Shown one piece after another: positions 7,734 through 10,443 of a stretch of 10,443 nt of DNA. Within the stretch, counting starts at the first letter, position 1, and each line of letters begins with the position of its first letter. Source of the stretch: a virus (Duplodnaviria; Heunggongvirae; Uroviricota; Caudoviricetes); IMG/VR virus record IMGVR_UViG_2529292922_000021, positions 1 to 10,443 of that record; one strand, 5' to 3'. Below the pieces are notes generated by a model. The model worked only from the letters and a program-made list of their open reading frames with translations, did not search any database and was not told the origin of the DNA. The translations under genes were made by a program, and so were the position numbers.

Positions 7734-8842
7734 ATGACCGACACCACCATGCAATTGCTCAGTCAGGGCACAGACCCCGTGAAAATGCCGGATTTTGATA
7801 TTCTTGCGGAGGGTAAAACGCTGTCAGGCGTGGCAGAGCGCCTGATGAGCCTGTCACTGACCGACAACCGGGGATTTGAGGCGGACCAGCTCACCATCAC
7901 GCTGGATGATGCGGATGGTCAGTTGCAGCTACCGCCACGGGGCGCGCGCCTGACGGTTCTCATTGGCTGGAAAGGAGAACCGCTGACAGAAAAAGGCACT
8001 TACATTGTTGATGAAATCGCTCACGAAGGACCGCCGGACAGGCTGACTGTTTCAGCCAGAAGCGCAGATTTTCGGGATGAATTTAACGTTAAACGTGAGG
8101 TGTCCTGGCATGATGTGACCCTTGAGCGTGTGGTATCCGCCATCGCTCATCGGTATGGTCTGAAACCACAAATCAGCGAAATGCTGATGGATATCGAAAT
8201 CGACCACGCCGACCAGACCGAAGAAAGCGACATGTCCTTCCTTACGCGCATGGCGGAAATGCTGGGCGCAATCACCACGGTAAAAAGCGGTAATCTGTTA
8301 TTCATCATGCCAGGCGGTGGCGTGAACGCACAGGGCCAGCCGTTGCCCTCGTTCGCCATCACGCGCAGCAGTGGCGATCGCCATCAGTTCCGCATTGCTG
8401 ACCGCGAAGCGTATACGGGGGTACGCGCTTACTGGCTTGATCTTAATTACGGGAAAAAGAAAAAGTCAGCGTGAAACGCCGCAAACCGCCAAAACCCAAA
8501 AAGGAGAAAAGCAGCAGCCGTGAAGGTGATTATATGGAAGGCGCAGAAGGCAATGTGTTTGTGTTACGCAAGACTTATCAGAACGAGCAGGCAGCAAGAC
8601 GCGCAGCGGCGGCAAAGTGGCAGCAGCTACAACGCGGAGCCGCAGCGTTCTCCATCACACTGGCACGTGGACGCGCAGAACTCTACCCCGAAATGCATGG
8701 CACGGTAACAGGATTTAAAAGCGAAATTGATAATCAGGACTGGATTATTGCAAAAGCCGAGCACACCATTGATAACAGTGGCTTTACCACGCAGCTTGAG
8801 CTTGAAGCCAAAATCCCGGAATGGATAGCAGAAACAGAGTAA
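7734..8842 (+). pseudogene. D: P2 gpD-like tail protein (late control gene D), split by a frameshift in a lysine-codon A-tract
   Basis: ATG at 7734 with RBS GGGAGGG (7722-7728). The N-terminal part (to the TGA at 8472-8474) contains LSLTDNRGFEADQLTITLDDADG, VSARSADFRDEFNVKREVSWHDVTLERVVSAIAHR and FAITRSSGDRHQFRIADREAYTGV, resembling P2 gpD as recalled. The C-terminal part continues in another frame (8471-8842: REGDYMEGAEGNVFVL..FSITLARGRAELY..DNSGFTTQLELEA). The switch lies within GGGAAAAAGAAAAAG (8451-8465). Confidence 0.8.
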
Positions 8843-9036
8843 ACAACTTAGATGCATTAGCCCTGACATTTGCTAACGCGCTTACAGCAAGAATCATAAC
8901 CAATCTGACAGCCTACCCGGTGTCAAAATCAGAAGAGCCTTACATTAGAATATGTTAATTTGTAGCAAACAAATTTACACACAAATGATTACTGCTGAAA
9001 TAGCCCCCATAAATACCATGTCAAAGGATCCATGTT

Positions 9037-9702
9037 ATGAATATGCAAATTTTTATCGCACCAGCAGCCACAGTTGCTGCAGTCTGCCTTGCTGCATATT
9101 TTGCTTTACGAAATGAACGTAAAAAGAAAGCACTTGAGATTAGAACAACTCAACTAGATCGAATATCAGAGCTAGTAAACCGAGCATCTACCAATTTGAT
9201 GCAATATACAGGTACTCTTGCCTCTATACTGGAAGCGCACGCCAAAGATAATTATCTACCGAACAAAAAATTTGACATTAATGTAATTAGCAAATGGAAA
9301 GATTGCCTCGATGAGAGTGAGGTCTGGGCGATTGATAGACAGCAACTAAGAACATGTCAGCACAGTCTGGAGTTTCATCGTGAAAAAGAATGGGCTGAAT
9401 GGAAAAAAATAATTCCACCATTACTTGATAAAATTGACCAATTTTTTCTCATATCTAAGCCAGGGCAACCTGTTACGTTTATAAATGGCCAAAACAAAAC
9501 AGCTGATGAACTACTTGTTTTCTCAAGATATTTGAGAAAACAAACAGCAGAAATTGAATCAGTACGTCAGCTGTTACTTTCTCAAATGAGAGAGGAATTC
9601 ATCGAGTTAACTAGCTTTGAACCTGTCACAATGTTTAGCTTATTTAAATCAATAAAGAAAAATGTCATGCAATTTTTCTGTATCAGTGCTCTTAAAAATT
9701 GA
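9037..9702 (+). CDS. Hypothetical membrane-anchored protein of unknown function; low-GC cargo gene between D and ogr
   Basis: 221-aa ORF with RBS AAAGGA about 8 nt upstream. GC content is visibly far below the flanking phage genes. N-terminal hydrophobic helix IFIAPAATVAAVCLAAYFAL is followed by a charged, probably helical segment. No family recognised. Own AT-rich upstream region and a strong downstream terminator. Confidence 0.7.
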   Translation: MNMQIFIAPAATVAAVCLAAYFALRNERKKKALEIRTTQLDRISELVNRASTNLMQYTGTLASILEAHAKDNYLPNKKFDINVISKWKDCLDESEVWAIDRQQLRTCQHSLEFHREKEWAEWKKIIPPLLDKIDQFFLISKPGQPVTFINGQNKTADELLVFSRYLRKQTAEIESVRQLLLSQMREEFIELTSFEPVTMFSLFKSIKKNVMQFFCISALKN

Positions 9703-9717
9703 CGCTCTGTTGCAAGC

Positions 9718-9747
9718 AACCCCAGTGTTAAACTGGGGTTATTCTTG
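9718..9747 (+). terminator. Rho-independent terminator of the cargo gene
   Basis: Perfect 9-bp stem AACCCCAGT (9718-9726) / ACTGGGGTT (9732-9740) with a 5-nt loop GTTAA, followed by ATTCTTG. Confidence 0.6.
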
Positions 9748-9851
9748 CTAAGAGACCTTTCTACGGCATCAGTAAACAAAACGAACTATCAGTTGGAGTC
9801 TGAGCAAGTTCAGCCTAAACTAGCGACAGCACTACGTTAAGGGAGGTCGCT

Positions 9852-10112
9852 ATGTTCCGTTGTCCGCTTTGTGGCGCATCTGCCCGTATCCGCACCAGTC
9901 GTCCGGAAAATGATTCAAACACCGTGCGGCAAAAGTATTACCAGTGTAACAACCTGGAATGCGGCGTATGCTTCTCAACACTGGAAGCTTTCCATAAATT
10001 CACATCGAAACACGCCTCCGGCATCCACTCTTCAGAAGATATCCCGTGGCATGAGCTGCCAGCTTCACACAGGGGAAACAATCAGATGAGCTTGCCTTTA
10101 CCTCAGAATTAA
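9852..10112 (+). CDS. ogr: Ogr/Delta-family zinc-finger late transcription activator
   Basis: 86-aa ORF with RBS GGGAGG (9841-9846). N-terminus MFRCPLCG..(x24)..CNNLEC gives the Cys4 C-x2-C-x24-C-x4-C arrangement; overall resemblance to P2 Ogr as recalled. Sits downstream of D, as in P2. Confidence 0.85.
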   Translation: MFRCPLCGASARIRTSRPENDSNTVRQKYYQCNNLECGVCFSTLEAFHKFTSKHASGIHSSEDIPWHELPASHRGNNQMSLPLPQN

Positions 10113-10121
10113 CAGGCAGAA

Positions 10122-10150
10122 TTGCCGGAGTAACAAAAAAGCGATAGATT
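10122..10150 (+). promoter_or_regulatory. Putative sigma70 promoter for the mok/hok transcript (TTGCCG, 17-nt spacer, TAGATT)
   Basis: -35-like TTGCCG (10122-10127), 17-nt spacer, -10-like TAGATT (10145-10150), placed about 20 nt upstream of the mok-like start codon. Motif match only. Confidence 0.25.
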
Positions 10151-10172
10151 ACGCGCGGGTGCCTTTCGGCTG

Positions 10173-10385
10173 ATGGTCGGAGGGAATACCCGAAGGCCAG
10201 ATGTGGAAAGGCCCCGGAAAACATCTCTGTTTAACCGAGGCCCTAACCGCATTACCTTGACAAGTGAAAGGTTAGCGCCTCTCCGGAAAAGGAGCAAGTG
10301 CTATGTCGCAAAAATCGCTTACGGCCATCACGTTCTGCGTGACGGCAATCCTCATCATCTGGATGTTGCACGGTTCGCTGTGTGA
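10173..10385 (+). CDS. mok: mok-like overlapping leader ORF (modulation of killing) of a hok-family type I toxin locus
   Basis: 70-aa ORF that starts upstream of the hok-like gene, overlaps most of it in a different frame and ends inside it. This is the arrangement of mok relative to hok in hok/sok loci; the protein sequence itself is not diagnostic. Confidence 0.3.
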   Translation: MVGGNTRRPDVERPRKTSLFNRGPNRITLTSERLAPLRKRSKCYVAKIAYGHHVLRDGNPHHLDVARFAV

Positions 10386-10443
10386 AATACGGATGAGCTT
10401 CTGGGGAGCGGAGTTTGCGGCGTTCTTACAGTGTAAGCAGTAA
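10303..10443 (+). CDS. hok: Hok/Gef-family type I toxin (small membrane-depolarising peptide), hokA-like
   Basis: 46-aa ORF missing from the ORF track (below its size cutoff). MSQKSLTAITFCVTAILIIWMLHGSLCEIRMSFWGAEFAAFLQCKQ has an N-terminal TM helix followed by the Hok signature SLCEIR and an AAFL..CK tail, resembling E. coli HokA as recalled. SD GGAG (10291-10294) lies in a potential CUCC/GGAG hairpin. Confidence 0.8.
   Translation: MSQKSLTAITFCVTAILIIWMLHGSLCEIRMSFWGAEFAAFLQCKQ

Follow-up and report, generated by a model that had tools for sequence, protein, structure and literature searches.

Gene D of a P88-like Escherichia coli prophage: very probably a young pseudogene made by the loss of one A, rather than a programmed frameshift site

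Introduction

The baseplate hub protein gpD is encoded by an essential tail gene in phage P2, and each tail requires just a few copies of the hub. Stimulatory Shine-Dalgarno (SD)-like elements for −1 frameshifts sit approximately 10–14 nt upstream, while transcriptional slippage in E. coli needs an A or T run of about 8–9 or more, for which five A residues are too short. The frequency of −1 shifts has been determined for all Z_ZZN tetramers in E. coli, and without a stimulator these reach a mean of 0.147%, compared to 0.112% for a background without motif (Sharma et al., 2014; PMC4066793). The most shift-prone tetramer under stimulation is A_AA.G, at 5.6%, a value for which the IS3 pseudoknot was required (PMC4066793). 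Unstimulated full heptamers shift at most ten-fold above a background of about 0.05%. Compensated indels are an established concept (PMC5009743). Here, we describe a gene D that lies in two frames in a prophage of E. coli, with a pair of lysine codons of the shift-prone type at the frame junction, and compare it with its phage and prophage relatives and with known recoding sites.

Prophage context of gene D

The DNA that was analyzed, referred to as the window, is a stretch of 10,443 nt from a P2-related prophage adjoining hok, ihfA, and pheT in E. coli. This prophage is P88-like (Xuanwuvirus, Peduoviridae; P2 relatives), with Escherichia virus P88_4B11 as the closest phage record. Its main features are the following.

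1–600, plus strand: DNA invertase
about 627–7576, minus strand: gpU, tape measure T, E'/E, tail tube FII, and sheath FI
about 755–2123, plus strand: ISEc21 (IS110 family, with a 358-aa DEDD transposase at 1036–2112) in gpU, a second lesion of the tail module
5508–5514, minus strand: T_TTT_TTG, a full heptamer in phase where the frames of E and E' meet close to the end of gene E; read from the sequence and used as an internal contrast to the D site
7734–10443, plus strand: gene D, an unknown 221-aa ORF, ogr, and the start of hok

The genes from FI to U are opposite in strand to D and ogr. This was considered as a possible rearrangement lesion and rejected, since the inducible phage P88_4B11 has the same arrangement. 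In P88-like phages the FI-FII-E-T-U block lies on the opposite strand from D-ogr and adjoins the DNA invertase and an invertible tail-fibre region, and the divergent layout is native to the genus.

ISEc21 is inserted approximately 125 nt before the gpU stop codon, and five target bases (2244–2248 of the JNEC-KY180 locus, L004) are present on both sides of it. The element is absent from strain DEC2E (L006), in which D already carries the frameshift described below, and from all complete genomes compared. As DEC2E has the frameshift in D without the insertion in gpU, the frameshift came first, or at least arose independently.

The 221-aa ORF between D and ogr (9037–9702, plus strand) matches nothing in Pfam, PADLOC, or PHROG. 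It is also found in the E. coli loci L001–L004, and is absent from P88_4B11, KSC9, EC04, and GF75, where ogr follows directly after D; its position resembles a slot for variable cargo in prophages of the P88 type. At the far end, the window stops within a hok/gef family toxin ORF (10303–10443, plus strand). An Rfam scan of the whole window returned no family at the gathering threshold, hok/sok RNAs included.

Gene D lies in two frames

Gene D, which encodes the baseplate hub (Pfam Phage_GPD), is located in the position expected for a P2-type tail module and adjoins ogr. It is divided over two frames, the first covering 7734–8474 and the remainder running to 8842 in the −1 frame. The start at 7734 is the one used for the 369-aa protein WP_000132801.1 of strain N31. 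Toward the junction, frame 0 reads GAT CTT AAT TAC GGG AAA AAG AAA AAG TCA GCG TGA, the TGA being 8472–8474. In the −1 frame, the last stop is the TAA at 8444–8446, after which TTA CGG GAA AAA GAA AAA GTC AGC GTG AAA follows and the frame stays open to 8842. Since the −1 frame is closed until this TAA and frame 0 ends at the TGA, the two halves can be joined by a −1 shift only within 8447–8474. An earlier, sequence-only reading of this DNA had offset the two halves by −1 and placed the switch in the same interval, and the stop positions in both frames lead to identical coordinates. The parts of the gene, all on the plus strand, are as follows.

7734–8474, plus strand: N-terminal fragment of D, 246 aa (MTDTTMQLL...GKKKKSA*), ending at a premature TGA made by the frameshift; identical to EHU11282.1 (DEC1C) and EHU58331.1 (DEC2E)
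8447–8474, plus strand: frame-overlap window of 28 nt, with two in-phase A_AAG tetramers within G_AAA_AAG
8460–8464, plus strand: A5 run, A6 in intact alleles and the site of the 1-nt deletion, from the alignment with L001–L004
8465–8842, plus strand: C-terminal part of D in the −1 frame, in which a 123-aa ORF can be called from the GTG at 8471, overlapping the upstream stop (GTGA); identical to EHU11283.1 (DEC1C)

Both fragments retain recognizable parts of the hub domain. Against the Phage_GPD profile (PF05954) they align to positions 48–207 with 27.9 bits and to positions 218–304 with 28.2 bits, each just under the cutoff of 30.1 bits, while the D protein of an intact relative covers the whole domain (profile 48–304) with 61.3 bits. 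The only solved relative found for the intact allele is the R2 pyocin hub (6U5H chain C, E 5e-41). The break in D coincides with the start of a basic linker that is length-variable among gpD homologues, being missing in phage Dobby and gapped in the alignment with 6U5H_C. A loss of function of D is probable, because gpD is essential in P2 and half of the conserved domain lies downstream of the break.

Two different RefSeq annotations exist for the same intact D DNA (L001 6235–7344 and L002 3235–4344). Some genomes are given one 369-aa 'phage late control D family protein', and others a 266-aa 'contractile injection system protein, VgrG/Pvc8 family' together with a partial 'hypothetical protein' pseudogene on the antisense strand, which is spurious. 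Such a discrepancy could pass for a split gene.

One A is missing from the only A6 run of gene D

An alignment of positions 7500–9000 with three E. coli chromosomes gives the cause of the split. The second A run of the junction (8460–8464) consists of five residues in the window and of six in the intact alleles, so that the relatives (L001–L004) carry GGG AAA AAG AAA AAA GTC, GGGAAAAAGAAAAAAGTC (A5-G-A6), as opposed to A5-G-A5 in the window. A comparison of D orthologues in this tract had been suggested as a check on the sequence-only reading, and its outcome is this 1-nt difference. The missing A is the sole gap in 8321 aligned bases relative to JNEC-KY180 (L004), the closest intact prophage compared over 8.3 kb. 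The closest intact allele is that of strain N31 (L002), in which four positions in 5.9 kb are unlike the window, the missing A being one of them. When one A is inserted into D of the window a 369-aa protein results, and because the 7500–9000 alignment has no other difference from N31, this restored protein is the one of N31. The deletion seems to be recent, as apart from it just three positions in 5.9 kb separate the window from N31, and no further damage is seen in the downstream half of D.

The A6 run is the only homopolymer of six or more in the intact D gene and is therefore the expected target for replication slippage. The lesion has the hallmarks of a homopolymer-indel pseudogene, namely an indel relative to near-identical intact alleles and a premature stop created by it. 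The first of the options put forward from the sequence alone, a real 1-nt indel that makes D a pseudogene alongside other lesions, is upheld by the deletion relative to near-identical alleles, by its presence in several assemblies, and by ISEc21 in gpU.

Gene D in phages and in other E. coli genomes

A tblastn search with D matched 524 phage records, and ORF integrity was read in five phage D genes, that of P88_4B11 and four more distant ones. All five (P88_4B11, the P2-like fiAA91-ss, Salmonella RE-2010, Pseudomonas Dobby, and Klebsiella Kp4880-3) are single ORFs. The nearest phage record, P88_4B11 (LR595891.1), has one 369-aa ORF annotated as 'Gene D protein' that is 99.2% identical to the intact allele. 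The expectation that D of P2 is normally a single ORF thus holds for the five phage genes and for the intact E. coli prophage alleles that were read. The D gene of the Klebsiella phage Kp4880-3 has the same AAA AAG AAA AAA codons; this was not taken as conservation of a signal, since by our own estimate four lysine codons would match by chance with a probability of about 0.15.

The D region is present in approximately 1400 of 5426 complete E. coli genomes. Among the 1127 complete E. coli genomes carrying the 71-mer, the exact allele of the window occurs in one, KSC9, in which many of the neighboring genes are annotated as 'frameshifted'. In a spread systematic sample of 60 records, A6 was found in every fully covered record except KSC9 and EC04; EC04 has A5 on a different background, and D is annotated as frameshifted in both strains. 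A5 occurs in about 1–2% of the sampled E. coli genomes, on unrelated backgrounds, and an intact single ORF in about 98% of the sampled copies. The intact 369-aa protein, otherwise identical, is encoded on at least 1000 contigs, and the fragments on 4 and 10 contigs. These frequencies are based on the spread sample of 60 and on contig counts for exact proteins. A search with the intact 72-mer returned 440 records, compared to 1129 for the 71-mer of the window, probably owing to low-complexity masking and seeding, and was not used as a frequency. With a single ORF in five of five phage genes and in nearly all sampled E. coli copies, the two-frame layout of D is not conserved.

Two 73-nt matches (GF75 and CUVET18-1475) were considered as A7 alleles and rejected, as they have substitutions elsewhere and an intact A6. 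Only A6, the majority, and A5 (about 1–2%) were seen in the sampled genomes, with no long multi-allele repeat of the kind that marks a phase-variable contingency locus. Independent frameshifts in D are found in other strains: ECA64 (L003) has a different 1-nt deletion at window-equivalent position 7939, and KSC9 (L005) and EC04 (L012) show A6 to A5 at 8460–8465 on unrelated backgrounds. These reflect either recurrent decay of the gene or recurrent homopolymer errors.

The frame junction as a candidate recoding site

The sequence-only reading had drawn attention to the tract as shifty, and the part of this claim that stands is the presence of two A_AAG tetramers in phase (8456–8459 and 8462–8465). 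The base ahead of each AAA codon is a G (8453 and 8459); both heptamers read G_AAA_AAG, and the classical A_AAA_AAG is absent. Neither candidate follows the slippery pattern X_XXY_YYZ, leaving the A_AAG tetramer alone. The 80 nt downstream fold worse than shuffled controls (z = +1.53), with no stimulatory structure, and the best local hairpin near the site has 4 bp and −3.1 kcal/mol. An SD-like GGGA is present, but it is weak and misplaced: its anti-SD pairing amounts to −4.3 kcal/mol compared to −7.3 kcal/mol for the dnaX element, and it lies 4 nt from the second A_AAG. The D site therefore has neither a downstream hairpin or pseudoknot nor an upstream SD-like element that could serve as stimulator. 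For transcriptional slippage, the site offers two runs of A5 with a G between them, short of the required length.

The window provides its own contrast. Near the end of gene E, T_TTT_TTG at 5508–5514 is the P2 E/E' programmed frameshift signal. Here the heptamer and both ORFs are intact, with E' in the −1 frame and carrying Pfam Phage_P2_GpE, and the two-ORF layout is annotated in every relative compared.

At the D tract, spontaneous −1 slippage at roughly 0.1% would be expected. The suggestion that slippage meaningfully restores D finds no support, as there is no full heptamer and no stimulator, the split is not conserved, and tetramers without stimulation shift at about background level. Programmed or useful slippage at D is not supported. 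The A_AAG codons do no more than encode the lysines of a basic linker and did not evolve as a signal for recoding.

A weaker form of this idea is a leaky pseudogene, in which spontaneous −1 slippage of tRNA-Lys at an A_AAG yields biologically useful amounts of full-length gpD, a few hub copies being sufficient per tail. This explanation is improbable. It draws on the two in-phase tetramers within the 28-nt overlap, on the outcome of a shift (the exact wild-type protein from a slip at the second A_AAG, a single K-to-E change from a slip at the first), on A_AA.G ranking first for shifting among stimulated tetramers in E. coli (PMC4066793), and on the precedent of compensated indels (PMC5009743). 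It is opposed by the background-level rate of tetramers without a stimulator (PMC4066793), by the lack of downstream structure, and by the re-pairing in the P-site, which would go from AAA to GAA. Moreover, the allele is confined to one clone and sporadic cases, with nothing pointing to selection, and in DEC1C gpU is also broken, so that D restored alone would not rescue the tail. If slippage at about 0.1% holds, some tails might form in DEC2E, where gpU is intact. Still less likely is the broader proposal that A5 is leaky or reversible, with either slippage at the tandem A_AAG or reversion of A5 to A6 supplying the few hub copies per tail; if it were true, a DEC2E-like prophage with its intact gpU would still release particles at low titre, with wild-type gpD recreated.

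The A5 allele in independent assemblies

The window is 100% identical to positions 163–10605 of AIEX01000038.1 (L007, E. coli DEC1C). The 246-aa N-terminal fragment is encoded on six contigs, from DEC1C (L007), DEC2E (L006), and the Logan assemblies SRR094171, SRR094167, ERR10498364, and ERR10498362, with A5 in all of them (strain names for the D fragments are taken from NCBI protein names). Within D, all six contigs equal the window except that of DEC2E, which is one base off (8587). The Logan contig of ERR10498364 (L009) has a single deletion outside D and a cluster of 33 SNPs within about 570 bp of the tape-measure gene T (window 3978–4545), and is otherwise almost the same as the window. 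The cluster marks recombination in a prophage that is clonal elsewhere.

As A5 recurs in two NCBI assemblies and four Logan read-set assemblies, the deletion is probably real and inherited within one clone. The opposing view, a sequencing or assembly artefact with A6 and an intact D in the true genome, is very unlikely. The site is indeed a homopolymer, the source assemblies are early draft genomes, and in the assembly of KSC9, which also has A5, many genes close to D are annotated as 'frameshifted'. On the other hand, DEC1C and DEC2E are different isolates with separate NCBI assemblies, the Logan assemblies were made independently from raw reads of the series SRR094xxx and ERR10498xxx, and homopolymers of six bases are on the short side for consensus errors when coverage is normal. 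A homopolymer sequencing error, the second option of the sequence-only reading, is hence unlikely for the DEC1C/DEC2E lineage, given the same allele across independent assemblies; in the unrelated record KSC9 such an error is plausible.

That D is a functional split gene, whose 246-aa product and a 123-aa product translated by termination-reinitiation at GTGA assemble into a working hub, is extremely unlikely: the TGA at 8472–8474 does overlap a GTG (8471–8473) in frame with the C-terminal part and the break does fall at the start of the length-variable linker (missing in Dobby, gapped relative to 6U5H_C), but the GTG has no usable Shine-Dalgarno sequence before it (anti-SD pairing reaches at best −4.3 kcal/mol, at a site 16 nt upstream), the layout is an accidental by-product of the deletion, and it is not conserved in any relative read.

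Discussion

Gene D in the window is very probably a young ordinary pseudogene that arose by the loss of one A, not a programmed frameshift signal. One A was lost from the A6 run, the only one in D, and replication slippage is the most likely mechanism. Translation would then yield GKKKK followed by Ser-Ala and end at the TGA at 8472–8474, and the last 123 residues of the hub domain, now in the −1 frame, would not be made in useful amounts. The lineage appears to have kept decaying afterward, with the insertion of ISEc21 into gpU in DEC1C. This is ordinary prophage decay, in a P88-like prophage of the DEC1/DEC2 EPEC clone.

The prophage of the DEC1/DEC2 clone is probably tail-defective. For annotation, EHU11282.1 and EHU11283.1 (DEC1C) should be described as one frameshifted pseudogene of a P88-like gene D; beyond correct annotation, the meaning of the lesion is small. 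The locus may also serve as a negative example, in which an in-phase A_AAG at a frame junction is no evidence for recoding when near-identical relatives are intact and a stimulator is absent.

Comparison with known systems

In its gene order, the prophage resembles P88_4B11 (Xuanwuvirus), in which sheath, tube, E/E', tape measure, and U are likewise on one strand and D and ogr on the other. A different layout is found in P2-type phages, fiAA91-ss among them, with U, D, and ogr co-oriented. The gpD/Phage_GPD hubs of P2-like phages are uninterrupted in the five phage D genes read, whereas D of the window carries a 1-nt deletion.

With the programmed −1 sites on A_AAA_AAG (E. coli dnaX, IS911/IS3), the D site shares the lysine codons AAA-AAG with an in-phase A_AAG and a −1 shift that would lead to a full-length product. 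Unlike in the dnaX/IS911/IS3-type sites, the heptamer of D starts with G, hairpin and pseudoknot are lacking, and the SD-like element is weak. Moreover, in contrast to programmed sites such as P2 E/E', the two-frame layout of D is missing from nearly all relatives. The homopolymer-indel pseudogenes of decaying prophages show no notable difference from the D locus, and share with it the loss of 1 nt from the gene's longest homopolymer, the premature stop, an IS lesion nearby, and different lesions of the same gene in other strains.
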